Source of the DNA: Bacteroidales bacterium
GTDB lineage: Bacteria > Bacteroidota > Bacteroidia > Bacteroidales > UBA7960
NCBI GenBank assembly: GCA_046291875.1
Contig: JBKBSF010000014.1
Span: forward strand, 4,569 to 68,568
Direction: 5' to 3'
Length of the DNA stretch: 64,000 nt
The notes below the pieces were generated by a model that ran no database searches, was not told the DNA's origin, and saw nothing but the letters and a program-made list of their open reading frames with translations. The number at the start of each line of letters is the position of its first letter. The stretch's first letter is position 1. Position numbers and translations under genes: made by a program. Shown in pieces: positions 41,656-57,100 of this stretch.

Positions 41656-42807
41656 ATGTTCCATACTTCTCACATCGAAATCAGCCGCTCGGCCTATCGG
41701 AAAAACATCAGGTACCTGCGTAAGGTAGTGGGCGAGAAACCTGTTATTTCATCGGTAATAAAGGGCAATGCCTATGGGCATGGTATAGAGCATATGGTGC
41801 CGTTGGCGGAAGGTGCCGGATTGAAGCATTTCAGCGTGTTTTCAGCCTCTGAGGCGTTGCAGGTGTGCAGAGTAAAAAAGCCAACCTCCGACGTTATGAT
41901 CATGGGTCATCTGGATGATGAGCAGATAGAATGGGCCATAGAGCATGAGGTGGAATTTTTTGTCTTCGACCCCGAGAGGCTGGAAAAATGTCTTGAAATG
42001 GCCCGCAAACTCAATAAGCCCGCCAGGATACATATTGAAGCCGAAACAGGATTCAACCGAACAGGTTTCGACTACAATTATCTGCCAGAACTGATGAAAA
42101 CATTGCAATCTCACCGGGAGCATTTCATCTTCGAAGGCCTTTGCACCCATTATGCAGGGGCAGAAAGTATTGCCAATTATGTGCGTGTACGGGAGCAGAT
42201 CTCTTTGTACAAGAAGTTCTACAAGTTTTTCTGGCGCCACCAGCTTATCCCCAATAAGAAACATACGGCATGCTCGGCGGCAGTGCTGAGCTATCCGACC
42301 ACCATCATGGATATGGTGCGCATCGGCATTGCCCAGTATGGCTTCTGGCCGAGCCCCGAAACCCAGATGTTTCGCTTCCATAAGGACCCTACCGACGACA
42401 ACCCGCTACGCAGGCTCATTTCCTGGAAAAGCCGGGTGATGGTGGTAAAAGAAGTGGAAGCAGGCGACTTTGTGGGATACGGCTCCAGTTACCTTGCCAA
42501 CAAAAAGATGAAGATTGCCATTGTGCCCGTGGGTTACAGCAACGGATTCAGCAGATCATTGTCCAACATGGGCCGGGTGCTTATACGTGGTAAACGGGTG
42601 CCGGTAATTGGCACCGTAACCATGAACACCATGACGGTAAATGTAACTGACATTCCCCATGTGGAGAAAGGCGATGAGGTGGTGCTCATTGGTAATCAAA
42701 AACGGTTGAGCATCAGTGTGGCCTCCTTTTCTGAGATGAGCAATGAGCTCAATTACCAGACCCTGACCCGCCTTCCGGCAGATATACCCCGCCAGGTGGT
42801 GAAATGA
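41656..42807 (+). CDS. alr: Alanine racemase
   Basis: PLP-lysine motif SVIKGNAYGHG; overall fold-type III length and C-terminal domain. Confidence 0.85.
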   Translation: MFHTSHIEISRSAYRKNIRYLRKVVGEKPVISSVIKGNAYGHGIEHMVPLAEGAGLKHFSVFSASEALQVCRVKKPTSDVMIMGHLDDEQIEWAIEHEVEFFVFDPERLEKCLEMARKLNKPARIHIEAETGFNRTGFDYNYLPELMKTLQSHREHFIFEGLCTHYAGAESIANYVRVREQISLYKKFYKFFWRHQLIPNKKHTACSAAVLSYPTTIMDMVRIGIAQYGFWPSPETQMFRFHKDPTDDNPLRRLISWKSRVMVVKEVEAGDFVGYGSSYLANKKMKIAIVPVGYSNGFSRSLSNMGRVLIRGKRVPVIGTVTMNTMTVNVTDIPHVEKGDEVVLIGNQKRLSISVASFSEMSNELNYQTLTRLPADIPRQVVK

Positions 42808-42817
42808 ATTTATCTCC

Positions 42818-45800
42818 TCACCCTTTTTTCTTCTCACTGAGCACTTTGCGAATGCCCTCCAGGCTATCCACAAACAAAGTCATCTGACCAATCACCTGTG
42901 CCATACGGTCGGCATCGCCCAGGCCCCTGATGCGATTATTTTTCACAAAAGTATCCTTGATGAGCTGCCAGCGTTGTTGGCGTATTTCGTCCAGAAGTTC
43001 CATAATCTCGAAAAGCTTGAGCATATTGGCTTCGGCTCCGGAGGTGAGGGTTTGCGATTCGTTCTGATAATGGCTCAGAAGCAATTGCAGCACCTCTTCA
43101 TCATTGAGGATCGGCACAACCTGGCTCATGAGCTTGTTCATATCGCGGTAAGACCCCTGGAGTTTGAAGGGAGGCTCCACACGATAATCGTCGGCCATGG
43201 CAGCAGAAGCAATGTATTGTGCATTCACTTTGAGTACCACATCGCGGATTTGCATACACTTTTTGAGTACCTGCACACAATCCTGGATCTCCTGCGTGGA
43301 GAGGTTCCCCTCCATATCGGGCAATGCACCCTCCTCATTCTCAACAAAACGAACCAGCTTGTAAAGGTTTTCCATGCTGAATCGGGTAAGCGATTTGAGG
43401 AATGGATTGGAGGTGAGCCCATTCTCGATAAGGCTCAGGTTAAACAGATCCTGGCGGTTGGTGGTCATATCTCCCAGGTTGTAAATATCGGCCCGGTTGG
43501 AGAGCATATCGGGTATCTGGAATTTCTCTCCACTTTCGGTATAGGGGTTTCCGGCCATCACCACACAAAAACGTTTGCCTCTGAAATCGTAGGTTTTGGC
43601 CTGCCCGTTGTATACCCCATCCATTTTGCGCTGGGCATCGGACAGGGAAATAAATTTCTGCAGAAACTCGGTGTTGCAATGCTGTATATCATCCAGGTAG
43701 AGCATTACATTATCGCTCATTTCAAAGGCAAGGTTGAGCTTCTGGAGCTCCTGCCGTGCAGCAGCATTGCGAGCTTCCGCAGGATCTACCGAAGTGATCT
43801 CGTGCCCCAGCGAAGGCCCGTTGATCTTCATAAAGATCAAACCCAAACGATCGGCAACATATTCCATCAGGGTGGTTTTCCCATAGCCCGGAGGGGAGAT
43901 CAACAGAAGCATCCCCGAGCGGTCGGAGCGTTTATCCTGTCCATAAGCTCCGATCTGCCTTGCAAAGTTGGCACCTATAAGCGGGAAATATACTTCGTTG
44001 ATGAGCTTGTTGCGCACAAAAGAGGTAAGCACCTGTGTTTTGAACTCATGAAGCCGAAGGTTTTTCTTCTTCTCTTCAATCAACTGGTGTTTAAGCTGTT
44101 GCAGCTGCAGGAAACGCGGTTGTACAACCTGAATGAAGTGGCGCAAACGATCTGACAGCCGATGAAAATCGAACACATAAACCTTATCGCTGGCATCTGC
44201 CGGCAACGACCGCAATCCTTCTATGTTTTGCACCCCGCTCAGATGCAGTATATAATCCGGTTCGGAAGAATCGGGCATAAGACACGAAGTAAGCTCATCG
44301 ATGAGATATCCTTTGGCTTTCTTGCCTTTGGCATTGAGGAATGTGGTAACCCAGGAACGAGAGAGATGCCAAAGGGCCTCCGGAAAGGGTTCCAGCCCTT
44401 TCTGGGCTTCTGCAAAGATGATGTCTGCATTTTTCTCGCGCAGGTATTTTTTGAAATCCTTCAGCAGGTCAGCGGCATGTTTATCCAGGGCAAATCCGGG
44501 AGTGGCCTGCTCTTCGGCCAGGTAGGTTGCTGCAAGCAACGGGTCGGTTTCGGTAAAGAGCTGATGCTCCTGCGAGAAAGCAGTAATAGACTGAGCCAGC
44601 TTGGCAAGAAGGTGCTTGTAGTTTTCTTTTTGCTCAAACACCTGCTGCATCAGGTTGATAAACACAAACTGCTTTTTGAAATAGTCCTTTTTGTCCTGGG
44701 GTGCATAGTACCAGAAGATCCTGGCCAGCACCCTGGCGGCAGCCGGATATCGAAGCATCCCCAGGTCGCGGTGTTTTTCGAGCAGGTTCTGCAGCAGTGG
44801 CAATGCATCGCTGTCGTGCACCCCTTTTACAAATCCTTCACCGTAATTCGATCCCATATAGTCGGCAATGGCTTGTACCAACTGTTTCTCTTCATAGATT
44901 TTGTAGGGGTCGAGGTTTTCAAACACTTTCCAGGCCAGGTATTCGGCCCTGGCCACCAGGCGGTTTTCTGAGGGCAGCTGCTGCTCCCATACATCCTGCA
45001 ACTGATCTATGATGGCACTGTTGATGGGCTCGTAAAAGGAGGTGCCGGTAAGATGGTAAAAGTAGCTGCGATCTTTCAGAACCAGGGTCAGATCGAGGGG
45101 TTGGGTATTTACGGCAAACCGGTGTTCACCCATACGGATCACATTGTCGCCATCTTCAAAAAGCTCTTTGCGATCTTTCAGGGCCCGCACAGACTCCTGC
45201 TGCAAAACCTGTATCTGGTTGCGAAGGTCTTCAGATTTAGCAGAGTCATCAAGCTTCTCCAGCTGATCGGCAATGTCTCTTACTTTCTCGATCATCAGAT
45301 CGGATGCGAAATATCCGTTGATCTCGGTTTCGGAGGTAAGGCTCTTTGCCTTGTTGGCAATCCCTTTGAGGATTCGCTGGGCAGATCCGAACAAGGTATT
45401 GGTGCGGCGGTTGCGGGCTTCGGTCAGACTCACCTTCCGGGTTTCGAAGGCAGCATATACAGCCTCACGCTTTTCGGTGATCTTTTCGGAAAAATCTTCA
45501 TAATCGGCAAACTTACCCTCCAGCTCTTCAAGCTGTATGGAGAGCCGCGTAAGATACTCATCGCATTTGGCAGGTTCGGTGGCCAGCTCCATAAAGTTTA
45601 CCACCGACTGTTCAAAAAGGGTCATCTGTGCCTGGAAGTCGGCACGTGCTTCCTTCTCGCCCAATTGCCGGCGTTTGTTGTTCAGGGCCTGGCGCTGCTG
45701 ATTGAGGCGTGAGAAAATCAGGGAGATATTCTCAATGATTTTGGTGGAATGCGAAGTATCTTCAATCTTAAGGTTGTTGATGATATCGATGAGCAGTTCA

Positions 45801-47659
45801 AGCTTTTGTGCCAGCTCATCGAAGCGGGTTTCGAGCTTGCGGGCATCTACCACTTTGGTAAGTTGCTCCACCATGCCCTCCAGCTCATCCATGCTTTGCT
45901 GGTAGTAGGCCAGAGCATTGTCTTGCAGCAGAAAATCCACACAACCACTGGCAAGCAATTCAGCCCTTTCGGCAATTTGTTTTTCCAGGGCAGCCACCAC
46001 CTCCATGTTGATATAGCGCAGGTTGCGCAGGCCAATGATCTCTCCCCTGATACCCCGCATGCGGGCCAGCAGAGAAACATACTGATCGAGGGTATCGAAG
46101 CTGGCACTGCGGGTATCAAAGAGGATCTTTTCCACCGTTTGGGAAACTTTCTCCAGTGCTGCAGCCGTATTGCGCCTTATCTGCACCACCTTCTCAAACT
46201 CATCGATGGCCGACATGGCAACCTTCCTGAGTTGTTTGAGCGGCTGCTGCAGGCCTGCCCCGGTTTCATTCTTAAGCCAGAAGTAGCCATCCATGATCGC
46301 CTGGCTCTTCTGCAAAATATCTTTGTAAAGACCCTGGTAGGAGTCCTCTTTGCTGAGCAAAACGATGAGTTCCTGTACCTCGGCCATTGCCTTTACAATG
46401 GCCTTGTTGCCGATCTTGTAAAGCTCGTGGTCCTGGTACTGGGTACCGGGCAATACCTCACGGGTGTAAGGTGTTTGCCAGATCTGGATCAGGTGGTGCC
46501 TGCCAGGATCGGTTTCTTTGTTGAAATAGCACAGCTCGCCCTTATCGAACAAGGTATAACCATTGCAGAAGATGGGCGTTTTTACGGTTTGCTCAATAAC
46601 GTTGTACGACAAAATAACAAAGTCGTGGTTCTTCTCTTCGTAAAACACAAAAAGAAAATCCTCGCCATTGGGCGACTGTATCCTTTGGAGGAATTTAACC
46701 CCTTCGATGCGCCTGTCGAAGATCTTGTATTCGCCCGTTTGCAGGTAATAGCCGTTGGAGAGGATGATCCCCTGATCGTCGGGCAACAAAATACCCGCAT
46801 CTCTGAGAGTATCTACCCTTACCACATTTTTAATCCGATGGTTGAAAATGAAGTAGCGATCCTCTTCCAGGTAAGGTTTAATTTTGAGCAACACAATATT
46901 TCCCAGGTCGCAGAAATGGATCTCACCATCATCGAGCGACTGGTCTTTTTGCTCTACATCTTCACGGTAAATCCCCAGGCCATCTTCGGTATTGTCTTCC
47001 ACCTTTATGGTAAGATCTCCCTGTACGGTTTCCACAAACACTTTGTCGGCAATGGATACATGAGGATTTTTGCCTATCCGCTGCATATCGCGTGTGGCTT
47101 TGGTCCAGGTAAACTCATGCTGATTGGGAAAACGAACCTCTGCAGCACTGCGCGAGTCTATATATACCAGTTCGGTATCGCGGATCAGCCATTTGAATGC
47201 TTTAACATCGGAGGGGCTGTCGGAGAGCTGGAAGAGCATGTAGAGGAAGTTTTCGCGGACGGCGAATCGGGAAAACCGGGTATGGCGAAAGAACTTATAG
47301 AGGTTCTGTAGCTCATTGGCAAAATCCTTATCCTTAATGATATCCAGAGGTGCCGGATGAAACTCGTTTTCCTGGAATTTGTAAACACTGAAAACATCAG
47401 AGATCTCCAGAATAGTTTTCAACCCCAGCCTTACGTTGTATCCCAGGAGGCATACCCCGGCAACTGATACCAGGTCGCGGGCCAGGCAGTGGTGTTCGGT
47501 ATCTACCCTTACATTGGAAACCAGTTTAAAGTCGATGGCCCCAAATACTTTCTGGCGCTCTTTGTTGAGGAGTTGAAGCTGTTCGGCAAGCGCGCGGCGT
47601 TGTTCCTGCAGGCGGCTCTGTATGATTTCGTATGTACCTTTTTCTATTGTGTTGTCCAT
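42818..47659 (-). CDS. Giant (1613 aa) protein with a MoxR/AAA_5-class AAA+ ATPase module near the C-terminus, a long central coiled-coil region and a large N-terminal region of unknown fold
   Basis: Walker A LLLISPPGYGKTTLMEY (about nt 43871-43900), Walker B VMLYLDDIQHCN (about 43683-43700), MoxR-like sensor region FCVVMAGNPYTESGEKFQIPDMLSNRADI. Start taken at the ATG 47659 (MDNTIEK) rather than the ORF-track 47728. It lies co-directional with, and 94 bp downstream of, the flotillin gene. Confidence 0.7.
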   Translation of the reverse strand: MDNTIEKGTYEIIQSRLQEQRRALAEQLQLLNKERQKVFGAIDFKLVSNVRVDTEHHCLARDLVSVAGVCLLGYNVRLGLKTILEISDVFSVYKFQENEFHPAPLDIIKDKDFANELQNLYKFFRHTRFSRFAVRENFLYMLFQLSDSPSDVKAFKWLIRDTELVYIDSRSAAEVRFPNQHEFTWTKATRDMQRIGKNPHVSIADKVFVETVQGDLTIKVEDNTEDGLGIYREDVEQKDQSLDDGEIHFCDLGNIVLLKIKPYLEEDRYFIFNHRIKNVVRVDTLRDAGILLPDDQGIILSNGYYLQTGEYKIFDRRIEGVKFLQRIQSPNGEDFLFVFYEEKNHDFVILSYNVIEQTVKTPIFCNGYTLFDKGELCYFNKETDPGRHHLIQIWQTPYTREVLPGTQYQDHELYKIGNKAIVKAMAEVQELIVLLSKEDSYQGLYKDILQKSQAIMDGYFWLKNETGAGLQQPLKQLRKVAMSAIDEFEKVVQIRRNTAAALEKVSQTVEKILFDTRSASFDTLDQYVSLLARMRGIRGEIIGLRNLRYINMEVVAALEKQIAERAELLASGCVDFLLQDNALAYYQQSMDELEGMVEQLTKVVDARKLETRFDELAQKLELLIDIINNLKIEDTSHSTKIIENISLIFSRLNQQRQALNNKRRQLGEKEARADFQAQMTLFEQSVVNFMELATEPAKCDEYLTRLSIQLEELEGKFADYEDFSEKITEKREAVYAAFETRKVSLTEARNRRTNTLFGSAQRILKGIANKAKSLTSETEINGYFASDLMIEKVRDIADQLEKLDDSAKSEDLRNQIQVLQQESVRALKDRKELFEDGDNVIRMGEHRFAVNTQPLDLTLVLKDRSYFYHLTGTSFYEPINSAIIDQLQDVWEQQLPSENRLVARAEYLAWKVFENLDPYKIYEEKQLVQAIADYMGSNYGEGFVKGVHDSDALPLLQNLLEKHRDLGMLRYPAAARVLARIFWYYAPQDKKDYFKKQFVFINLMQQVFEQKENYKHLLAKLAQSITAFSQEHQLFTETDPLLAATYLAEEQATPGFALDKHAADLLKDFKKYLREKNADIIFAEAQKGLEPFPEALWHLSRSWVTTFLNAKGKKAKGYLIDELTSCLMPDSSEPDYILHLSGVQNIEGLRSLPADASDKVYVFDFHRLSDRLRHFIQVVQPRFLQLQQLKHQLIEEKKKNLRLHEFKTQVLTSFVRNKLINEVYFPLIGANFARQIGAYGQDKRSDRSGMLLLISPPGYGKTTLMEYVADRLGLIFMKINGPSLGHEITSVDPAEARNAAARQELQKLNLAFEMSDNVMLYLDDIQHCNTEFLQKFISLSDAQRKMDGVYNGQAKTYDFRGKRFCVVMAGNPYTESGEKFQIPDMLSNRADIYNLGDMTTNRQDLFNLSLIENGLTSNPFLKSLTRFSMENLYKLVRFVENEEGALPDMEGNLSTQEIQDCVQVLKKCMQIRDVVLKVNAQYIASAAMADDYRVEPPFKLQGSYRDMNKLMSQVVPILNDEEVLQLLLSHYQNESQTLTSGAEANMLKLFEIMELLDEIRQQRWQLIKDTFVKNNRIRGLGDADRMAQVIGQMTLFVDSLEGIRKVLSEKKKG

Positions 47660-47753
47660 GAAGATAATTGGCAAATGAATGAATAGAAACCACCGGCGGG
47701 CCTGGCACAAAAGAGCCCGCCAGTGCAATTGAGGGGTTATTCAGAAGCGGGGA

Positions 47754-49775
47754 TTAGCCCAGTTTCTTCTTATCAAGGCCCAGATCTTTGGCCATACTGA
47801 GCAGGTTTGACAAAAACCCCTGGTCTTCTTCGCTGGCCTTCAGCTGCATCTGTGCGATGAGGGCAGCAATGGAAAGGTTTTTCAGGTTCTCGCTGGTAAT
47901 GCCGTACTTGTCGGCAATTTCCCTGATGCGATCCATGAGGTTGGCAGTGCCTGGCTCGCCATTGCCCAACAGGGAAGTTTTGATCTGATCGATGGTTTGA
48001 GAATGCTCTACCAACTTGTCAATTCCCTTGGCATGCGATATTTGCCTGATGAGGTTTTCGAAGAAGGTATTGTCGCCACCCACGATATCGATCTTGGCGG
48101 TTTTGAATGCTTCGGCAAGTACCTTGGCCTGTGCATCGGCAATATCCTTCTGGATGCTGATCTGGGCAAGTTCTACCTCTTTCTCCTTGGAGAGTTTCAG
48201 TCTGAACTCTTCGTGCTCTTTGCCGGCATCGTTGAGTTGTTTCATGGCACCCGCCTTTTCCTGGATACCCCTGGCTTCGGCTTTGGCTTTTTCTTCGATC
48301 ACTTCGGCTTCTACCAAACCTTCTTTGCGTTTTGCTTCGGCCATCTTTTCCACTACAGCGGCATCTACAAATCCCTGGCGCTCCTGCGCATCGGCCTTGG
48401 CATGCATTACCTGTGCTTCCGACAAACCCAGTGTGGCTTCTTCCTTGGCTTTGGCATCGGCAATGATTTTGCGCGCTTCAGCATCCTTATCGGCGGCTTC
48501 CTTGCGGGCATTGGCCTCCACCAGGATACGCTGGGCATCAAACTTGGCAGCCTTCTCTTTGGCTTCGGCAGATTTCACCTCTTCGATCATGTTTCTTTCG
48601 GCCTCTTTGGCAGCCTCAATGAGGGTAACATCCTTCTGGCGGTTGGCTTCCTTGAGAGCTTCCACATCCTTGATCTTCTCCTGCTCTTCCACCACGGTTT
48701 TCTGCATGGCCACACGTTCGCGGATGGTATCCTGGATATTTTTCTTCTCTACTTCAATGGCCTTTTCTTTTTCTATCTGGGCCAATGATACGATGCGTTC
48801 CCTTTCAGTGGCTTCCAGATCGCGGTCTTTCTTCACACGCTCCAGCTCTACCGCTTCGGCTCTTTGTTTGTTCTTTTCGGCGATGATGATCTGGCGTTGC
48901 TTGTTTTGCTCCTGAATCTCCAGTTGTTCTTCGGTGCTGATCTTAACGGTTTCTGACCGAAGCTTCTCTTCTGCAGTTACCTTATCGATCTCTGCCTGCT
49001 CGCGGGCTTTGATGGTTTCTACCTCGCGGCGTTGCGATTCTTCTTTCTCCTTTAGCTGCTTCTCGAGCTCCAGGATCGCTTCGCGGGCTTCCACATCCTG
49101 CTTCTTGATGGTCTTCTCCTCATCGCGGCGGATAAGGTTTGCCTTTACATTCTGCACAGCAGTAAGTTCAGTAATCTTTTTGATACCTTCCGCATCGAGA
49201 ATGTTGTTGGGATCGAGATTTTCGATCTTGGTCTGTTCCAGGTAGTCGATGGCACAGTCGTCGAGTACATATCCATTGAGGTCGGTACCAATGATATCGA
49301 TGATCTCATCGCGAAACTCGCGTCGTGCTTCATAGAGTTCGATAAACTCAAACTTCTTACCCACACTCTTGAGGGCTTCGGAGAATTTGGCTTCGAAAAG
49401 GCTTTCGAGGGTTTCGTGGTCGGACGCCCTTGCACAGCCAATGGTTTGGGCCACATTGATAATATCCTGCACCGACTTGTTTACCCTGACAAAGAAGGCC
49501 ACTTTGATATCGGCCCGCATATTGTCCTTGCAGATAAGGCCGTCCTTGTTCATACGTGAGATCTCCAGCTTTTTCACGGAGATATCCATGATCTCTTCTT
49601 TGTGAAGAATGGGAATAACCAGTCCGGCATTGAAAAAGATTTTTACACCACCCTGGCCGGTGCGTACCAGCACCCTGCCCTGGCTTACCTTTTTGTACAT
49701 CGAAATAAGCCACATGAGCAGGCCGATGAGTACCACCACGCCCAGGAAGGCCACTACATAAAAAGATTCAATCAT
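47754..49775 (-). CDS. Flotillin/SPFH (band-7) family protein with a long Glu/Lys/Ala-rich coiled coil (YqiK-like)
   Basis: N-terminal TM segment plus SPFH domain (…VSQGRVLVRTGQGGVKIFFNAGLVIPILHKEEIMDISV…) and a heptad-repeat region of about 350 aa. Confidence 0.85.
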   Translation of the reverse strand: MIESFYVVAFLGVVVLIGLLMWLISMYKKVSQGRVLVRTGQGGVKIFFNAGLVIPILHKEEIMDISVKKLEISRMNKDGLICKDNMRADIKVAFFVRVNKSVQDIINVAQTIGCARASDHETLESLFEAKFSEALKSVGKKFEFIELYEARREFRDEIIDIIGTDLNGYVLDDCAIDYLEQTKIENLDPNNILDAEGIKKITELTAVQNVKANLIRRDEEKTIKKQDVEAREAILELEKQLKEKEESQRREVETIKAREQAEIDKVTAEEKLRSETVKISTEEQLEIQEQNKQRQIIIAEKNKQRAEAVELERVKKDRDLEATERERIVSLAQIEKEKAIEVEKKNIQDTIRERVAMQKTVVEEQEKIKDVEALKEANRQKDVTLIEAAKEAERNMIEEVKSAEAKEKAAKFDAQRILVEANARKEAADKDAEARKIIADAKAKEEATLGLSEAQVMHAKADAQERQGFVDAAVVEKMAEAKRKEGLVEAEVIEEKAKAEARGIQEKAGAMKQLNDAGKEHEEFRLKLSKEKEVELAQISIQKDIADAQAKVLAEAFKTAKIDIVGGDNTFFENLIRQISHAKGIDKLVEHSQTIDQIKTSLLGNGEPGTANLMDRIREIADKYGITSENLKNLSIAALIAQMQLKASEEDQGFLSNLLSMAKDLGLDKKKLG

Positions 49776-49790
49776 AGTTGTAAGAGTTTT

Positions 49791-50444
49791 TTAAGGTTGA
49801 TATTTCTGAACAAGAAAGAATTTCCGGTCTGGCGATTCTTCGAGAATGATTACGGTATCGTTGTAAGGGATGGGTTCTCCATCGATGGAGCGGGCATACA
49901 CCCTGATCACATCTTTCATAACATGTACCTCTATCTGCCCCAGGCGGTTCTGCCCCATGGGCGAGATTACCCGGCCGGTTTTGCCAATGAAATCGATGGG
50001 TTCTTCTCCTTTGTGGTTAAACATGGCATAGAGCTTCACAAAAGGTTTTGCCACTACTTTGGTAACCAGCATACTGGCAATAAACCCAGGCACATACACC
50101 GCAAAACCCAGTATGTTGTGCGAGATTCCCAGGATGGCCGTAACGTTTACATTGATCAGCCACATGGAGAACACCACCAGGGTAATGATGAAGATGATGG
50201 GCAGCTCGCCAATGTAAAAAAACTTCAGCATGGCATTCCAGAAACCGTCGCCATCCGGATTTCCGGCCTCGGGTTTTGAGATATCGCCGGTGTCGGCATC
50301 AAAATCCACATCGGCATCGGTATCGGCCAGATCAAAGTCGAACCCTGTAAAGATCACCACCAGCCAGTACAAGGTAACGAAGATAACCAGCAGGCTCAGG
50401 ATGAAGTTGGCCGGAGCAAAGGCAATATGAAACAGTTTTTCCAT
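49791..50444 (-). CDS. NfeD/YqiJ-like membrane protein (OB-fold partner of flotillin)
   Basis: N-terminal TM segments, an acidic DFDLADTDADVDFDAD loop and a C-terminal OB-fold-like region (…GKTGRVISPMGQNRLGQIEVHVMKDVIRVYARS…). Confidence 0.7.
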   Translation of the reverse strand: MEKLFHIAFAPANFILSLLVIFVTLYWLVVIFTGFDFDLADTDADVDFDADTGDISKPEAGNPDGDGFWNAMLKFFYIGELPIIFIITLVVFSMWLINVNVTAILGISHNILGFAVYVPGFIASMLVTKVVAKPFVKLYAMFNHKGEEPIDFIGKTGRVISPMGQNRLGQIEVHVMKDVIRVYARSIDGEPIPYNDTVIILEESPDRKFFLVQKYQP

Positions 50445-50495
50445 TTCTGTGCATAGATTAGGTTAAAGAGCTCTGGGAGGCAGTCAATGGCAGGT

Positions 50496-51206
50496 TTACC
50501 CATTGGTGGGGGGTTCGTTCAGGCCCATTTGCTTTTTGAGTTCTTTCAGCTCATCATCCAGAGACAGGTTTTCCAGGGTTTCGCTAACGCGCTGATCGGC
50601 GGAGCGCTGCCCGGCCAACTCGCCATAGGCTTCGGCCAGAGCTTCATCCTGCATCACCTTTTCCTTCATGCGCTCCAGCATCGATACAACGCCGGTGCTG
50701 TCCATGCTGGTCATCTGCTTGTTGATCTTCACAGTAGCACTGCTCACCTTAACGCGGGCTTTGAGGGTGCGAAGCTCATTCTCCCATTGCTTGATCTCAG
50801 CCTTAATCCGCGCCACATTCTGCTCCAGGGTAGCAACCTGCTTTTCAAGGCTGGCAACATCTTCTGTAATGATGCGGATCTCCTGCGTAACTTTGGCTTT
50901 GCGCTTGAGGTTTTCCTTCACAAGATCGTCGGCCTGAGCTGCATCCAGTTCGCCTTGCTGGGCCTTGCGCAGCAACAGCATCGATTTATTGTGCAGATCT
51001 TCCTCCAGGCTGCTTTGCTCAGTAAGTTCTTTTTTCCGGCGGATATGCATGGCTTTTACTTCGGCCAGCGAGCGCATTGCACTCTCCTGGTTGTCCTGCA
51101 TATCGCGAAGCCCCTGTTCGATCATTTTGATGGGATCTTCCAGCTTATCGATGGCAGAATGGGTCTCTGCCTGCCCTATTTTAAACAATCTGCGTAAAAC
51201 TTTCAT
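50496..51206 (-). CDS. pspA: PspA/IM30 (phage-shock protein A / Vipp1) family protein
   Basis: MKVLRRLFKIGQAETHSAIDKLEDPIKMIEQGLRDMQDNQESAMRSLAEVKA… helical coiled-coil protein with the PspA N-terminal signature. Confidence 0.85.
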   Translation of the reverse strand: MKVLRRLFKIGQAETHSAIDKLEDPIKMIEQGLRDMQDNQESAMRSLAEVKAMHIRRKKELTEQSSLEEDLHNKSMLLLRKAQQGELDAAQADDLVKENLKRKAKVTQEIRIITEDVASLEKQVATLEQNVARIKAEIKQWENELRTLKARVKVSSATVKINKQMTSMDSTGVVSMLERMKEKVMQDEALAEAYGELAGQRSADQRVSETLENLSLDDELKELKKQMGLNEPPTNG

Positions 51207-51218
51207 GACTATATATTT

Positions 51219-51614
51219 TTAGTGTGATTTTGAAAACGATAGAATTTCATTGGAATATTCGGAGAGTAAGAGAGCCAGGGAGTTTATGGTGCTTTCCAGC
51301 TCTTTAAGATCGAGCGTTTCCACCTGTAGGGTGTTGCGAAAAATCACCTTCTCTCCCGTTTCATCCAGCACAAATGCTCCGTGCACGATGTCGCGGTTTT
51401 TGATGAGCAACTTTCTGAAAATGGAAGTATCCTCCTTCACATCAAAAAGGTACTGCTCAATAATAACTATGGGCGCTGCAACTCCGATCACCATATTCTT
51501 CACCCCCATCTCCTCCTCATCAATCACAAGGAGGTTGTCAGCTTCATTTTCATACAGAACAGAGTAGCCCAGTTCGGTAACATAGTCTTTTACTTTATAG
51601 AAATAGGTATCCAT
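51219..51614 (-). CDS. YbjN-like (putative sensory-transduction regulator / chaperone-like) domain protein
   Basis: About 130 aa; …YSVLYENEADNLLVIDEEEMGVKNMVIGVAAPIVIIEQYL…FVLDETGEKVIFRNTL… resembles YbjN. Start assumed at the ATG (MDTYFYK…) within the longer ORF-track call. Confidence 0.5.
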   Translation of the reverse strand: MDTYFYKVKDYVTELGYSVLYENEADNLLVIDEEEMGVKNMVIGVAAPIVIIEQYLFDVKEDTSIFRKLLIKNRDIVHGAFVLDETGEKVIFRNTLQVETLDLKELESTINSLALLLSEYSNEILSFSKSH

Positions 51615-51672
51615 ACATGAGGTTTTTATAGGGTTTTTTATAGTATTGGTCTTGCAAAGAATTCGGTGCACA

Positions 51673-51768
51673 ATGATAATAAGAATTTTTTACAATGCAA
51701 AAATTTTCAACATTTTTTTTGCAAATATTATTAGCAATTTGTAATTTTGACAAAAAAAACAGCAAGCC
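51673..51768. promoter_or_regulatory. AT-rich divergent promoter region between the psp-like operon and the XRE regulator gene; contains the 8-bp palindrome TTTGCAAA and several TTGCAAA/TTGTAAT half-sites
   Basis: Seen in the sequence. Confidence 0.4.
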
Positions 51769-52398
51769 ATGTCAGTATTTGGAAAGAATATCAGGAAGAT
51801 ACGCAGTGTAAGAGGCCTCACACAGGCCCAGCTGGCGGAGATGATCGATGTAAGCCGCGGCCAGATCAGCTCCTACGAAGAGGGTCGTGCAGAACCCAAA
51901 ATCGAAACCATACTAAAAACGGCAGAGGTGTTTCATATCAACACCGACCTGCTGTTGCGCGGCAACCTCACGGTAAATCAGCTGGCAGGATTTACCCTGC
52001 CCGATGTAAGTAAAAGCAAGCCGGCGTCGCAGCAGGAGCAGGAACCGAGGCTTTTCAGGTTCTTACCCCGCAACACCCGCGAAATACCCGCCCACGAGCT
52101 GGCTCCCAACCCATGGGTAAAGAAGAACGACATCGTGCTGGCAGTACCGGCCAAGGTGCTCATGGGGAAAATGATGATCATTCATGCGGCAAAAGGATCC
52201 TTTATGGGCCGGATAAGTTTTGAGGATGCCAAAAACGTTAGCATTGATACGGCCGAAAAAACCTTACTCCAGCCCAGGGAAACCCTCGAAGTGCTGGGTA
52301 TATACTCGCCTGTGCAGAACCTATCGCCCTTGGAAGAAAAACTGCTCAACCTGGAAGCCAGGGTACAAAAACTCGAAATGCAATTAAAAAGCCGCTGA
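51769..52398 (+). CDS. XRE-family (Cro/C1 HTH) transcriptional regulator with a C-terminal domain of unknown function
   Basis: IRKIRSVRGLTQAQLAEMIDVSRGQISSYEEGRAEP HTH motif; divergently transcribed from the ybjN-pspA-nfeD-flotillin-ATPase operon. Confidence 0.8.
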   Translation: MSVFGKNIRKIRSVRGLTQAQLAEMIDVSRGQISSYEEGRAEPKIETILKTAEVFHINTDLLLRGNLTVNQLAGFTLPDVSKSKPASQQEQEPRLFRFLPRNTREIPAHELAPNPWVKKNDIVLAVPAKVLMGKMMIIHAAKGSFMGRISFEDAKNVSIDTAEKTLLQPRETLEVLGIYSPVQNLSPLEEKLLNLEARVQKLEMQLKSR

Positions 52399-52402
52399 TC
52401 CT

Positions 52403-53314
52403 ATGCCCCAAAAATTGTATCACCTTCAAAAACTCCAACACATGGTAAAAACAGGACTTCTCTTCGCAGCTTTGTTTTTGGGGCTCTGCTCCTGCAATTT
52501 AATTTCTGAGCATTTCATCAGAAAATCGGGTGAAATGGAAAAGCAGGGCAACACCGACAAAGCCATACGCTTCCTGCTGGCTGCCGAAGTACTGGATAAG
52601 AAAAATCCGGATATCAACCTGCAAATTGCGGCACACTACCTTGCGCTGGAGCAGGAGGACTGGGCCAGAACAGAATACTACAAGGCGATGAATAAAAACA
52701 CTTCAAGCGGTGAACTGGTAATGGCCTGCATAGGTATGGAGATTAAAACCGGCAACTACTGGTCGGCATTGAGCCTTTTCAGAAAGCTGGATATGTCGCA
52801 TGCCAAATCGCCTGATCTGCCCTATGCTCTCAAAGGATTGGCCTATTTTGGCATTCCCAACTACGATAGTGTGATAGTGTATTTCGACCAAGCCATTCAT
52901 CACTGTCCCGACCGGGCCGTCCACTATATTCACAGAGGTTATGCACTTGCGGCCCTGGAGCGGTATCCGGAAGCCCTTGCCGATTACCGCACAGCAGTGA
53001 GTATCGACTCATTGCGTCCGGATGTTTTTCTCAACAAGGCAGACCTGTGGTATATCCTGGAAGATTACCCGCGGGCCCTGGTAAACTACAACCTTGCCAT
53101 GGCACTTATGCATAAAAGGTATGGCATTACAGAGCAGGCAACGGTGGTATATCACAACCGCGCCAGGACCTACCTGGCCCTGGGCGATACCCTGCGTGCC
53201 ATGAAAGACCAGGCCACTGCCAGCGACCTGGGCCCCGCAGACCCTATCCGCCGTTTCGACCTCTTCGGTTCCGATATCATCAGAATGGCACTGGCACAAA
53301 GACCGGGGAGTTGA
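52403..53314 (+). CDS. TPR-repeat lipoprotein
   Basis: Lipobox …LFLGLCSC and several TPR-like helical repeats. Confidence 0.6.
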   Translation: MPQKLYHLQKLQHMVKTGLLFAALFLGLCSCNLISEHFIRKSGEMEKQGNTDKAIRFLLAAEVLDKKNPDINLQIAAHYLALEQEDWARTEYYKAMNKNTSSGELVMACIGMEIKTGNYWSALSLFRKLDMSHAKSPDLPYALKGLAYFGIPNYDSVIVYFDQAIHHCPDRAVHYIHRGYALAALERYPEALADYRTAVSIDSLRPDVFLNKADLWYILEDYPRALVNYNLAMALMHKRYGITEQATVVYHNRARTYLALGDTLRAMKDQATASDLGPADPIRRFDLFGSDIIRMALAQRPGS

Positions 53315-53380
53315 ACGATAAGTCGGTGGGAGGGGTGTAATAAATAGCCTGAAATACTCCTTTGGCACGCTGAACCCACA

Positions 53381-53538
53381 ATGAGGTTTCAACTGGATAT
53401 TCCTGAGACTCCAACCCACCTGTCAATAAACATACATTTTTGAAGGCTTTAATCAATGCAAACAAAGCCCTTGCTGAGCTCAAAGGAATAGCGAAAAGAC
53501 TACCCAACCCATCCATGCTGGTAAATACTATTGCGCTT
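53381..53538 (+). pseudogene. Fic/Doc-family protein N-terminal remnant (frameshifted, lacking the catalytic core)
   Basis: Frame reading …NKHTFLKALINANKALAELKGIAKRLPNPSMLVNTIAL matches the conserved N-terminus of Bacteroidetes Fic proteins and then diverges; the upstream ATG (MRFQLDIPETP…) is in a different frame with an intervening stop. Confidence 0.5.
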
Positions 53539-54183: not shown

Positions 54184-57100
54184 ATGACCCGATCTTCCTT
54201 TGTCCTTGCCTTCGCTCTGCTTCTTTCCACTTTTTCATGGGGGCAGGATTTTGCCAAAATCCCTGCAACACATCAAAGCCATCCTGAGCTGGGCACCACC
54301 CGCCCTGCATCGGTAATCTCTCTACTGGCCTACGAGCTGGTGCATTTGCGCACCACCCATTCGCGCACTTTTCTCAATGCCAATAAAACCCGTACGCTGG
54401 TGTATTCTACAGCTCCCTTACATTACCTTGACGACAATGGTTTCTATATTTCCCTACAAAACAGACTAACAGCCCGGGAGCCCGGCCAATACCAAATGCC
54501 TGATATGAACCCTGTGCATCACTTCAATGAGCTTACAGGACGCACCGGCTTTTCCCATGCAGGTGCAACCATGCATATCGAACCCCAAAAGGTAACCTTT
54601 GGTTCTTCGGAGCAAACCCAAACCCAAGTTGCAACCCATCAAAGCCGGACCAGGGAGGTATCCGCCAGCCTGATCAACACCCGGGAGATTTTTCCGGGTA
54701 TCGATATGCGGCAGGAGTTTTTCGATTTTGCCCAGAAAACCCATTATATCCTCCGCCATTCTTCCGATATCCTCTACTGGGCCGATCATATGGTTGTAGA
54801 AAATCTTATTACTATTCCCGACAACCTGCGCCTGGTTCTGGTGGATGAGGAGCAAATGGAAGTTGTAAACAGTGAGGGAGATCCTGTTTTTCGGTTTCAT
54901 CCGGCCGTGGTTACCGACCAAACACCCATTGCTGCCAAATTCAGCCATCAGAGGCCCCACAGTATGGTGCAGTACGAGCTGGAGCAAAACACTCCCGGAC
55001 AGTATATTTGGCGTATGGTTGTAGATGCTCAATGGTTGCGTGCTCCTGAGCGGGTTTTCCCGGTGATCGTTGATCCGGTGATCTCCATTGTGAACAATGA
55101 GGTGGTTCCCAGTTGTGTTTTCCCAAATTATCAATCCAATACGCTGCAGATCAATGTACCTCAGGGAGAAACCATCCTCTGGACCGATATCACCTACGAT
55201 TTTGTGGCTGTGTCCGGGTCCAGTGCATGGATATCAGACCAACGCAGTTATGTATCGGGCAGTGCAGGCGAAACAGCTGTTTTGTCAGAATCCATTGATA
55301 CTCCGGGCACACATACTTACATCATCAATAATTCTCATATTGCCAACGGGGTTTCTCCGGGTCAGATCGAGCTCACCTTCCATGCCTCACGCAATTGGGG
55401 CGGATCGGGCTGCAATGCCTCATTCAACTTTATCAACCGGCGCACCGTTGAGGTGCATTATGGCACCATCGAGTTTGGCGATGGGCCACTATACATCAAC
55501 GAATACAGTGCTTCCAACCGCACCCATTACGATGGTTTCGGACGCACCGAAGACTGGATTGAGCTTTTCAATGCCGATACTGAAAACTATTTTAACCTGG
55601 AAGGTTATTACCTGAGCAACGATCCCGATGATCCGCTGAAGTGGCAGATCCCTGCAGCCATCATCCCTCCGGGGGGCAAAGTGCTGGTATACTGCTCCAA
55701 CCGCGATTTTGCCAGTGGTACAGTGCTGCATGCCAATTTTAATCTAACCCAGTTGCGCCCCGATGCCATTGTATTGTCGAACCCTCAAGGCGAACTCATG
55801 GAATCGGTGCAGATGGAGAGGACCCAGATCAACCATTCGCGTGGGCGGATTACCGATGGAAGCCCTCAATGGGGTATCTTCACCCACCCTACTCCGCTGC
55901 AGCCCAATGCACAGGCGAGGCTGGCCTACACCTCCACACCTGCCTTCAGCCTGCCTGCAGGAAGCTATTCGGGTACTGTACAGGTGGAGATCACCTCAGA
56001 GAACCCCAACGAAATCATACGGTACACCCTCAACGGTTCTACCCCCAACACTTCTTCGCCCATCTACACTGCACCCATCTCCCTGACCTCTACCACCGTA
56101 TTGAGGGCCAGGGCTTTTCATAACAACCCCGACACCATTCCGGGCTTCATCGAAACAGCCACCTATTTCTTTGACGAAAACCACCAGTTGCCCATATTTT
56201 CCTTTGCAGGTGATACGGATCTGTTGCAACTTTTCAATGGAAACAACTCACTGCGGCCCCTGGGCAACTTTGAGTTCTTCGATCAGGAGGGTGTATTCCA
56301 GGATAAAAATTTCGGCGATTTCAACAAACATGGCAACGACTCCTGGAGCTACCCACAAAGGGGAGTTGATTTTATATCGAGAGATGACTATGGCTACCAA
56401 CGCCGGCTCGAATACCCCTTCTTTGCTACCAAAGACCGCACGAGGTTTCGCCGCCTGATGGTAAAAGCTGCCGCCAACGATAATTATCCTTTTGAGAATG
56501 GTGGGGCACACATCAGAGACTCTTATATCCAAACCTTATCGCAGCTGGCGGGCCTGGATCTCGACGAACGCAGCTCTACCAACGTAATTGTATATCTCAA
56601 CGGGCAATACTGGGGAGTTTATGATCTCAGAGAAAGGGTCGACGACAATAATTTCACCGACCATTACTATGGCCAGGATTATCTCTATCGCGACAGCGAT
56701 AACTACCTTCAGTTCATCAAAACCTGGGGCAATACCTATGCTCATTTTGGCAATCAACCCGCCATTCAGGCCTGGAGCCACTTGAAGAGCTATGTGGCCA
56801 GCAACAATATGGGCGAGAAAGCTCATTTCGATTATGTGGACTCCCAACTCAATATCCAGAGCCTGATCGACTATTTTGTACTAAACTCCTTTGTGGTATC
56901 GCGCGACTGGCTCAACTACAACACGGGATGGTGGCGCGGCAGGAACCCGGAGGGTCAGGCACAGCAATGGCGCTATTATGTGTGGGATATGGAAGCAGCC
57001 ATGGGCCATTTCCATAACTATACAGGGCTGCCCAATGCCACTGCCACTGCCCCGCCCTGCCAGGCCGAAAACCTCAATGTGGGCGATGGACACACACAGA

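Follow-up and report, generated by a model that had tools for sequence, protein, structure and literature searches.

Flotillin genes are preceded by the gene of a partner protein of the NfeD-like kind in both the yqiJ-yqiK locus of E. coli and the yuaF-floT locus of B. subtilis. The E. coli yqiJ-yqiK locus carries neither a gene for a giant ATPase downstream nor PspA or CesT genes. [quoted passage not shown] With respect to ATPases, canonical members of the MoxR group act together with a VWA-domain partner. Vps4/CdvC-ESCRT-III systems resemble the locus described here in idea only, in that an AAA+ ATPase is encoded beside a protein of the ESCRT-III superfamily.

The whole gene architecture has been described by Ravi et al. 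in 2024 (mSystems 9:e00847-23; PMC11237479), where section 19 and Table S3 include a divergent regulator combining cHTH and protease domains. The example given in that section, from Dokdonia donghaensis (ANH61663.1), comprises a CesT/Tir-PspA pair, YqiJ/YuaF, Band-7/flotillin, and a protein with β-propeller, coiled-coil, and AAA+ parts; a shorter flotillin-YqiJ-ATPase form in other lineages is also mentioned there, together with the same contextual inference. The gene association is thus already known from comparative genomics (Ravi et al. 2024). The Dokdonia operon and the locus in the window (the whole 64-kb stretch of DNA analyzed here) are alike in their six genes, gene order, orientation, and phylum, and nothing essential differs; compared with the published cassette, the C-terminal domain of the regulator in the window is shortened and gave no S24 match. 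Four features reported below, i.e., a 19-bp operator, a hairpin behind the flotillin gene, the AAA_5/MoxR-like assignment of the ATPase, and the probable loss of S24 catalytic residues, do not appear in section 19 and Table S3. An original prediction made for this DNA had presented the giant ATPase as an uncharacterized Psp component; the ATPase is indeed no experimentally characterized component of Psp systems, whereas the implied novelty is lost to the architecture given in the cited section (PMC11237479).

RESULTS

Gene content of the cassette

The locus represents, for Bacteroidota, a membrane-scaffold cassette that is real, conserved, and widespread in bacteria. Five co-directional ORFs on the minus strand are separated by 12, 51, 15, and 94 bp (Table 1), as had been read from the DNA initially, and profile and structure checks showed the gene identities proposed at that time to be essentially right, a YbjN label excepted. 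The neighbors of the cassette in the window are housekeeping genes, namely for an alanine racemase, an M20 peptidase, and a TonB-dependent receptor. A TPR gene lies 4 bp downstream of the regulator gene and was excluded from the system because it is not conserved at the other loci. No RNA family of Rfam was found within positions 42000 to 53500.

TABLE 1 Features of the cassette, in positions of the window
Feature	Coordinates	Strand	Basis or remark
Giant protein, 1613 aa	42818..47659	-	Pfam: DUF3686, DUF7902, AAA, AAA_5
AAA+ core (about residues 1243-1400)	43460..43933	-	Walker motifs; N1371 = candidate sensor 1
DUF7902 (residues 581-665), within long helical middle region	45665..45919	-	Pfam E = 1.7e-24
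DUF3686 region (residues 24-460), helix then β-propeller	46280..47590	-	Pfam E = 6e-180
G+C-rich stem-loop, 13-bp stem, followed by T-rich tail	47691..47725	-	Just past flotillin stop codon
YqiK-type flotillin, 673 aa	47754..49775	-	Band_7 match; similarity to E. coli YqiK
YqiJ/YuaF-type (NfeD-like) membrane protein, 217 aa	49791..50444	-	Family profile
PspA/IM30 family protein, 236 aa	50496..51206	-	PF04012
CesT/Tir-like chaperone, 131 aa from ATG 51614	51219..51614	-	PF22550 CesT_Tir_1
19-bp imperfect palindrome TTGCTAATAATATTTGCAA, candidate operator of XRE repressor	51719..51737	.	Divergent region
XRE/Cro-C1 HTH regulator, 209 aa	51769..52398	+	HTH_19 and HTH_3, E about 1e-14

For the first gene of the array, which had been labeled YbjN-like, Pfam gave no YbjN match; CesT_Tir_1 (PF22550) was the sole match at E values up to 0.01 and was covered over its full length (E = 3e-52; 176.4 bits versus a cutoff of 27). 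The ORF is open to a GTG at position 51671, corresponding to 150 residues. As the Pfam match begins at residue 20 and the homologues are about 131 residues long, translation probably starts at ATG 51614, and the 150-residue version is probably too long. With this start codon, the divergent intergenic region measures 154 bp instead of the 96 bp assumed previously. The 236-residue protein is, judged from its sequence, a member of the PspA/IM30 family, PF04012 matching residues 3 to 226 (E = 8.7e-37; 127.3 bits versus a cutoff of 33.9), and neither a canonical PspA nor LiaH. Specifically, an assignment as equivalog of E. coli PspA (TIGR02977) was rejected at 52.8 bits versus a cutoff of 243, and one as LiaH at 31.9 bits versus a cutoff of 380. 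Pairwise similarity to the E. coli yjf products is weak (E = 2e-5 over 79 residues for PspA and YjfJ; E = 0.09 for the chaperone and YjfI), and orthology is therefore not claimed; the cassette has no counterpart of the polyamine genes found in the yjf operon.

The NfeD-like gene is located immediately upstream of the flotillin gene, at a distance of 15 bp, an order shared with yqiJ-yqiK and yuaF-floT. Full-length scans of the encoded 217-residue protein against Pfam and NCBIfam gave no YqiJ assignment; the window protein alone remained below threshold for NfeD (E = 0.047) and reaches YqiJ/NfeD solely via its family profile. Within this family, YqiJ_N was matched by 18 of 47 members, and the family profile aligned with B. 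subtilis YuaF (2k14; E = 0.008) and with E. coli YqiJ (hhalign; 96.4% probability, E = 1e-9).

The flotillin, which has 673 residues compared with the 553 of E. coli YqiK, is composed of an N-terminal hydrophobic segment, an SPFH domain, a helical region of about 346 residues rich in E, K, A, Q, and R, and a C-terminal domain. In its full length, the protein received no Band_7 or flotillin assignment from Pfam or NCBIfam, and single-sequence and profile searches against the PDB yielded no matches. When the N-terminal 236 residues were scanned alone, Band_7 (PF01145) was matched by residues 29 to 191 (E = 5e-14; 53 bits versus a cutoff of 23.6). The similarity to E. coli YqiK (31% identity over 444 residues; E = 8e-52) extends past the SPFH domain.

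The giant protein combines a β-propeller with a MoxR-like ATPase core

From the N to the C terminus, the 1613-residue protein features a helix, a β-propeller, a long helical region, an AAA_5/MoxR-like ATPase, and a helical C-terminal part. Its start codon, ATG 47659, agrees with the invariant M1 of the homologues, of which more than 3700 were found, including one 100%-identical protein from a Bacteroidales metagenome-assembled genome. The AlphaFold2 model of the N-terminal part (pLDDT, 87.8; pTM, 0.88) contains a helix formed by residues 7 to 39 and an all-β segment spanning residues 45 to 395. When the DUF3686 region was compared with the PDB by Foldseek, the top-ranked structures were those of β-propeller proteins, e.g., IFT-A, DCAF1, Elp1, Vps11, and PON1, with E values of about 1e-6. 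Among the proteins searched, this propeller was confined to giants of about 1.6 to 2.0 kaa or their fragments; no publication on DUF3686 turned up in the literature searched. Note that the model of the C terminus is of moderate quality, probably due to the shallower alignment used.

Both motifs named in the original prediction were located in the sequence, Walker A (GYGKTT) at positions 43871 to 43888 and Walker B (LYLDD) at positions 43688 to 43702. The possibility of degenerate or nonconserved Walker motifs had been raised as well; however, the two motifs, the candidate sensor-1 asparagine, and conserved arginines do not vary among homologues representing about seven phyla. In its core, the ATPase is of the AAA_5/MoxR-like and not of the Vps4-like type, which agrees with the MoxR class and the clade distinct from Vps4 initially assigned. 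Its best structural matches belong to the MoxR family (NorQ, CbbQ, and RavA), and it covers the AAA_5 profile over nearly the full length, whereas the alignment with the classical AAA profile PF00004 is restricted to profile positions 1 to 73 of 131 and p97 and Rix7, matched in the PDB by sequence, are aligned over the Walker A region only. The MoxR-specific model AAA_3 was not among the Pfam matches of the protein. Sensor 1 is followed by NP, nine residues, and IPDML..R, an arrangement that we take to resemble the MoxR motif. Compared with NorQ, CbbQ, and RavA, the giant protein has about 1240 residues fused upstream of the ATPase and lacks a VWA partner: Pfam detected no VWA domain in the protein itself, and no VWA-domain partner is encoded at any of 80 loci. 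Moreover, its Walker B motif carries DD instead of DE, so that fast hydrolysis is not assured.

Flotillin and YqiJ are the constant partners of the ATPase

In a gene neighborhood survey of the kind suggested along with the first reading of the DNA, flotillin was encoded directly upstream of the giant protein at 70 of the 73 loci that could be evaluated, which represent about ten phyla. The original prediction thereby withstood its own synteny test. These comprise a set of 66 loci, with flotillin at this position in 63 cases and yqiJ present in 60, and 7 further loci from Gammaproteobacteria, Actinomycetota, and Deinococcota, all of which (7/7) have flotillin directly upstream. At three loci, flotillin is missing although ample DNA is available upstream. 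Within the 66-locus set, PspA, the chaperone, and the repressor accompany the core at 36 of 46 Bacteroidota loci and at none of the 17 loci from other phyla. PspA adjacency was otherwise seen on one Pseudomonas megaplasmid, pQBR103, where a yjfIJ-type operon directly upstream of the yqiJ-like, SPFH, and giant genes represents an independent juxtaposition (yjfI-pspA...yqiJ-like-SPFH-giant). When all ORFs within 10 kb of the giant genes were clustered (80 loci), only the six cassette families recurred, which marks the cassette as self-contained.

The core order is fixed, i.e., a YqiJ/YuaF-type protein, a YqiK-type flotillin, and the protein of about 1600 residues, and in Bacteroidota it is preceded by the CesT-like chaperone-PspA pair and the divergent XRE repressor gene. 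The constant partner of the giant protein is flotillin/YqiJ, and PspA, chaperone, and repressor are an add-on. The original prediction of a Psp operon extended by an ATPase had this relationship backwards, as the part shared by about ten phyla is YqiJ-flotillin-ATPase, in agreement with the shorter form noted by Ravi et al. for other lineages.

A conserved hairpin and a candidate operator

Terminator-like hairpins had been said to be missing between the genes. This was wrong, as a strong stem-loop is situated behind the flotillin stop codon (Table 1); a simple hairpin scan had missed it, possibly through its loop-size limit. The 94-nt gap between the flotillin gene and the giant gene folds at -27.1 kcal/mol (z = -2.7), and hairpins of ≤-15 kcal/mol behind the flotillin gene were present at 49 of 65 related loci compared with 11 of 65 coding controls. 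At the equivalent position in locus L006, a hairpin is built from a different sequence. The element may act as a leaky terminator, as an attenuator, or by stabilizing the RNA. Its conservation makes a simple, uniform co-transcription of the giant gene uncertain and, together with extra small ORFs found between the two genes at some loci, counts against taking co-transcription of flotillin and ATPase for granted. Inspection by eye revealed no convincing Bacteroidetes-type promoter between the hairpin and the start codon of the giant gene, a result that is not decisive.

The divergent Cro/C1-type HTH gene was confirmed (Table 1), and its divergent orientation is kept in 36 loci. Behind the HTH, the regulator has a short degenerate C-terminal domain followed by a coiled coil. 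Peptidase_S24 was matched by 11 of 24 relatives of the regulator and not by the window protein. In an alignment with E. coli LexA, S119 is paired with Glu and K156 with Arg in most relatives, pointing to a probable loss of the catalytic residues from the peptidase-like domain. A classification as a CI/LexA-type regulator with the S24 catalytic Ser and Lys was rejected: the HTH is present, but the catalytic residues are mostly replaced.

In the divergent region, TTTGCAAA had been regarded as a palindrome. It is indeed present, at positions 51718 to 51725, and covers one half-site of the 19-bp imperfect palindrome listed in Table 1. As read from the DNA, the promoter of the regulator has a TTTG -33 element of the Bacteroidetes type, with which the longer palindrome overlaps. 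This palindrome has no second copy in the 64-kb window (0.04 occurrences expected), and matches with up to three mismatches were found in 25 of 37 homologous intergenic regions versus 5 of 3700 shuffles.

DISCUSSION

The most likely role of the cassette, proposed here tentatively since we place the whole explanation somewhat below even odds, is the ATP-driven remodeling of a flotillin scaffold, with PspA being recruited for membrane sealing. Flotillin and its YqiJ partner would assemble, like other SPFH proteins, into a large oligomeric scaffold at the inner membrane, on the side of the cytoplasm, and the giant protein, oligomerizing via its AAA+ module, would dock on this scaffold through the propeller and the helical arm and spend ATP to assemble, open, or recycle it. 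The CesT-like chaperone would hold PspA until needed; PspA would then be recruited to the scaffold site and seal or stabilize the damaged membrane, in analogy to a B. subtilis SPFH protein that PspA reportedly needs for its link to the membrane (PMC8581546). Binding of the XRE repressor to the palindrome overlapping the divergent promoters would silence the cassette as long as no envelope signal lifts the repression, and the hairpin may lower ATPase expression relative to that of the abundant scaffold protein or separate the two. The points counted against this mechanism are the missing VWA partner, the DD in Walker B, the hairpin and the small ORFs, and the three loci without flotillin.

Alternatively, the flotillin scaffold could be a mere platform at which the giant protein acts on clients, e.g., by unfolding or extracting damaged membrane proteins, while the scaffold itself is not remodeled. 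The same synteny speaks for such a function, and the β-propeller and the long helical arm could serve as a substrate or adaptor module. HflK/C cages, which house the AAA protease FtsH, provide a model. SPFH cages around AAA proteases are likewise established for prohibitin and the m-AAA protease (PMC13376388). Pfam detected, however, no protease or other catalytic domain in the giant protein or any conserved neighbor, and the cassette contains no conserved client gene. To our knowledge, members of the MoxR/AAA_5 group are also not typical unfoldases, and we consider client processing unlikely.

Rather improbable in our view is the main idea of the original prediction, in which the giant ATPase supplies PspA with energy, as a functional Vps4 analogue that disassembles or recycles ESCRT-III-like PspA polymers. 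PspA and the giant protein do share one operon-like array at 36 Bacteroidota loci and on pQBR103, and according to a 2025 review, bacteria have no known Vps4-like PspA regulator (PMC7619361), so that this role is vacant. In contrast to Vps4/CdvC, the giant protein belongs to another AAA+ lineage, has no MIT domain detectable by Pfam, and has flotillin rather than an ESCRT-III-like protein as its constant partner.

Very improbable is an anti-phage or other conflict system with the membrane proteins as effectors and a CI/LexA-like repressor as the switch, even though the cassette is self-contained with variable flanks, shows a patchy spread across phyla at 43 to 57% identity, and has a regulator with an XRE HTH and an S24-like domain that resembles defense-associated HTH regulators such as RmrA and CapH. 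No PADLOC model matches any structural gene; the only matches were generic coiled-coil and HTH ones, and the comparison of the giant protein with mad8 (E = 0.003) gave no significant stretch. Homologues were absent from 50,697 phage records, and a search of 72,556 plasmid records gave only 13, most of them on megaplasmids or chromids. The housekeeping neighbors in the window and the S24-like domain mostly lacking its catalytic Ser and Lys also argue against a defense-like module, an option mentioned initially and now without support from either PADLOC or phage records. A DNA repair ATPase, for which nothing speaks but two database labels (Pfam describes DUF3686 as "ATPase involved in DNA repair," and NCBI names the product "DNA repair ATPase"), is effectively excluded, as DUF3686 is a β-propeller and not an ATPase, Pfam and NCBIfam gave no match to a nuclease, helicase, or DNA-binding domain in the giant protein, and its constant neighbors are all membrane proteins.

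Two questions come together at this locus, namely, how bacterial flotillin assemblies are built and turned over and whether the ESCRT-III-like PspA polymers of bacteria have an ATP-consuming partner. As the association itself is already published, the gain is to be expected from experiments and not from discovery, and the present analysis adds testable handles: flotillin/YqiJ as the constant partner, the 19-bp candidate operator, the probable loss of the catalytic residues of the S24-like domain, and the conserved hairpin, which may set the flotillin:ATPase ratio. The locus offers a concrete ATPase candidate conserved across about ten phyla. It is possible, if doubtful, that the giant protein is the first dedicated ATP-driven remodeler of a bacterial flotillin scaffold, coupling scaffold turnover to PspA-dependent repair in Bacteroidota under the control of a dedicated repressor; if true, its part with respect to flotillin would be that of Vps4 with respect to ESCRT-III.

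Gene content of the cassette

Mechanical ORF listing gave five co-directional minus-strand genes, separated by the same 12, 51, 15, and 94 bp that had originally been read, and one divergent plus-strand gene. These gaps presuppose that the gene of the 1613-aa ATPase, termed the giant here, starts at ATG 47659, which is the invariant M1 of its homologues. For the first gene, the long ORF of 150 aa from GTG 51671 is probably too long, judging from a Pfam match that begins at residue 20 and from homologues of about 131 aa; with the probable start ATG 51614, the divergent intergenic region measures 154 bp rather than the 96 bp first assigned to it.

Positions of the cassette genes, motifs, and neighboring features in the window
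Feature	Position	Strand	Description
cesT-like gene	51219-51614	-	start at ATG 51614 (probable)
pspA	50496-51206	-	
yqiJ-like gene	49791-50444	-	217 aa
flotillin gene	47754-49775	-	673 aa
giant gene	42818-47659	-	1613 aa
Walker A	43871-43888		GYGKTT
Walker B	43688-43702		LYLDD
Stem-loop	47691-47725	-	13-bp G+C-rich stem, then T-rich tail
Regulator gene	51769-52398	+	XRE/Cro-C1 HTH
Palindrome	51719-51737		19 bp, imperfect, TTGCTAATAATATTTGCAA
Regulator promoter, TTTG	51718-51721		20 nt before the next element
Regulator promoter, second element	51742-49		TAATTTTG
TPR-repeat protein gene	52403-53314	+	starts 4 bp past the regulator stop codon
CotH-family protein gene	54184-59646	+	1820 aa; CotH kinase, lamin-tail, chitobiase-C, and Fn3-associated domains, InlB B-repeat, T9SS C-terminal sorting signal
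Antisense ORFs	42974-47311	+	opposite the giant gene
Antisense ORFs	47997-48915	+	opposite the flotillin gene

Among the products, PspA (PF04012, 127 bits) and the divergent XRE regulator were borne out by Pfam; the PspA scores far below the cutoffs of both the E. coli PspA and the LiaH equivalog models. The small first gene, previously labeled YbjN-like, returned no YbjN match and instead matched CesT_Tir_1 with 176 bits. The flotillin assignment was upheld by a Band_7 match to the N-terminal 236 residues (E = 5e-14), which did not appear when the 673-aa protein was scanned whole, and by an alignment across 444 aa in which it is 31% identical to YqiK of E. coli (E = 8e-52); its residues 200 to 545 consist to 62% of E, K, A, Q, and R. 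For the 217-aa protein, labeled NfeD/YqiJ-like, the NfeD match of the single sequence stayed below threshold (E = 0.047). YqiJ_N was matched by 18 of its 47 relatives, and the family profile aligned with YuaF of B. subtilis (E = 0.008) and, in hhalign, with YqiJ of E. coli (96.4%, E = 1e-9).

Several further features were observed in the window. The TPR gene may be co-transcribed with the regulator gene, beside which it is not conserved in other loci, and the product encoded farther downstream is a large secreted CotH-family protein. The strand opposite the giant and flotillin genes contains long ORFs of 393, 269, 219, 520, 263, and 299 aa, and a strong AT skew of -0.27 at 48 to 50 kb coincides with the E/K/A/Q/R-rich region of flotillin.

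Conservation of the gene neighborhood

Giant homologues were compared in 80 genome loci from Bacteroidota, Planctomycetota, Verrucomicrobiota, Kiritimatiellota, Desulfobacterota, Clostridia, and Omnitrophota. Clustering of every ORF within 10 kb yielded only six recurring families, i.e., the giant (80 loci), flotillin (67), the yqiJ-like gene (59), the HTH gene (36), pspA (36), and the cesT-like gene (32), and their order was always divergent HTH gene and cesT-like-pspA pair, where present, followed by yqiJ-like, flotillin, and giant. Synteny of the giant was set beforehand as the test that could refute the prediction, which passes it: among loci offering 3.1 kb or more of upstream sequence, flotillin was found in 63 of 66 (yqiJ, 60/66), and flotillin lay directly upstream in each of seven additional loci (Gammaproteobacteria, Actinomycetota, and Deinococcota). 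By contrast, pspA occurred in 36 of the 63 loci that extend 6 kb or more upstream, 36/46 in Bacteroidota versus 0/17 in other phyla. Cultivable carriers are available in Chryseobacterium, Sphingobacterium, Flavobacterium, and Riemerella. The constant partner is flotillin/YqiJ and PspA is accessory, which shifts the focus away from the Psp-centered framing chosen at first. An independent second link to PspA is provided by the 425-kb megaplasmid pQBR103 of Pseudomonas fluorescens SBW25, where a polyamine operon (yjfI-pspA-rhomboid-DUF2491-DUF350-DUF1190-glutathionylspermidine synthase) directly precedes yqiJ-like-SPFH-giant (positions 84437 to 97641).

Individual loci deviate from this layout. 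In loci L005, L007, L019, L036, L046, and others, flotillin and the giant are separated by between one and four short ORFs (about 80 to 230 aa) with little conservation, with one cluster (c10) recurring in this gap in Hymenobacter. In L052, L063, and L067, where the upstream DNA exceeds 7 kb in each case, the giant has no upstream flotillin or yqiJ. The pspA homologue of one Bacteroidota locus (L035) is found downstream of the giant instead of upstream, and on the other strand (15958-16689, minus), and three others (L012, L023, and L047) share a four-gene set 3' of the giant (about 183 to 214, 242 to 278, 287 to 294, and 521 aa), the 521-aa member being seen in L012 and L047.

Architecture of the giant protein

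Pfam assigned residues 24 to 460 to DUF3686 (E = 6e-180) and residues 581 to 665 to DUF7902, with weak AAA and AAA_5 matches at residues 1251 to 1376. The AlphaFold2 model of residues 1 to 480 is confident (pLDDT 87.8, pTM 0.88) and begins with a helix, after which comes an all-beta domain; since its top-ranked Foldseek matches are beta-propeller proteins, DUF3686 is a propeller. A propeller search of 1.84 billion cluster representatives returned 654 clusters, whose full-length members all measure about 1.6 to 2.0 kaa; the giant thus represents one fixed architecture.

For residues 1150 to 1613, model quality was only moderate (pLDDT 69); the model has the core of an AAA+ protein, in which a beta-hairpin comes ahead of the sensor-1 strand. 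The predicted Walker A (K1261) and Walker B (D1323/D1324) motifs are present as described. Homologues from about seven phyla keep both motifs, including the DD of Walker B, without variation, as they do N1371 and several arginines. AAA_5 spans nearly its whole profile in 27 of 27 family members, whereas the classical AAA model ends at Walker B, and matches to the PDB sequences of Rix7 and p97 cover the Walker A neighborhood only; the proposed MoxR-class rather than Vps4-like core is provisionally supported. No VWA partner accompanies the giant in the 80 loci, which is therefore not a canonical MoxR system.

Regulator and candidate operator

The HTH gene is divergent wherever the cesT-pspA pair occurs, and also in two Chryseobacterium loci lacking the pair. 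Peptidase_S24 matched the C-terminal half of 11 of 24 regulator relatives; the S24-like domain of the window regulator is shorter still. In an alignment of regulators (L005, L010, L023, L036, and others) with E. coli LexA, the catalytic Ser119 is replaced by Glu and Lys156 by Arg in most members; the regulator of L014 retains Ser. The S24-like domain is probably a non-catalytic dimerization or sensing module.

The 19-bp palindrome is common to the intergenic regions and occurs once in the window (0.04 expected); allowing up to three mismatches, it was found in 25 of 37 Bacteroidota intergenic regions versus 5 of 3,700 shuffles. The palindrome noted originally, TTTGCAAA, covers one half-site of it. 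Hymenobacter-type loci carry the variant GCTCA...TGAGC, which suggests that operator and repressor co-evolve. In the window, the palindrome overlaps a Bacteroidetes-type promoter of the regulator gene. The palindromes of several relatives additionally overlap a TAnnTTTG promoter that points toward the operon, at its -33 TTTG. We infer repression and autoregulation by the XRE regulator at this candidate operator.

A conserved hairpin downstream of flotillin

The stem-loop in the 94-bp gap 3' of flotillin, missed by a consensus scan for hairpins, contradicts the earlier statement that terminator-like hairpins are lacking; the gap folds with -27.1 kcal/mol (z = -2.7). In the closest relative (L006), a hairpin of different sequence, followed by a T-run, occupies the same place. 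When the most stable 45-nt fold in the first 100 nt past the flotillin stop was taken for each of 65 loci, the median was -17.8 kcal/mol, compared with -8.5 for shuffles and about -11 for coding controls; -15 kcal/mol was reached in 49/65 loci versus 11/65 controls, and all 40 shuffles were beaten in 41/65. About half of these hairpins are followed by a T-rich tail, and their sequences are unrelated between loci. The hairpin is a position-specific, conserved element, which may act as a leaky terminator, attenuator, or RNA-stabilizing element. Given this hairpin, the giant may or may not be co-transcribed with the genes before it.

Discussion

The observation behind the original prediction is real, although it erred on hairpins and on one start codon, and its interpretation is partly right but centered on the wrong partner. 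As a prediction from comparative genomics, the cassette architecture is already in print: Ravi et al. (2024, PMC11237479) call abbreviated flotillin-YqiJ-ATPase operons more widespread and, in a supplementary table, list a divergent "cHTH+Protease" gene for Dokdonia donghaensis. A 2025 review (PMC7619361) still treats the roles of Band-7 partners as undetermined. Our literature search found no experimental work on this giant ATPase.

Tentatively, and with somewhat less than an even chance for the model as a whole, we favor ATP-driven handling of a flotillin/YqiJ scaffold by the giant, with PspA recruitment and XRE control. Flotillin and YqiJ would form a membrane scaffold, and the giant, oligomerizing via its AAA+ module and docking via propeller and helical arm, would use ATP for scaffold assembly, opening, or recycling. 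The CesT-like protein would serve as a chaperone restraining PspA, which would then be recruited to the scaffold and seal damaged membrane; for this step, an account of B. subtilis, in which an SPFH protein links PspA to the membrane, offers a parallel (PMC8581546). The XRE repressor would keep the cassette silent as long as no envelope signal is received.

Alternatively, the scaffold could be a platform for an ATPase acting on clients, which appears unlikely. Vps4-like action of the giant on PspA is rather more doubtful; the 2025 review states that bacteria have no known ATPase acting on PspA in the manner of Vps4. A defense system is improbable, as there is no PADLOC match, phage copies are absent and plasmid copies few, and the neighbors are housekeeping genes. 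Because DUF3686 is a propeller, neither "ATPase involved in DNA repair" nor "DNA repair ATPase" is a justified name, and such a function is barely credible.

The conserved hairpin points to different production levels of scaffold and ATPase, and it may set the flotillin-to-ATPase ratio. The cassette bears on questions of flotillin and PspA dynamics.
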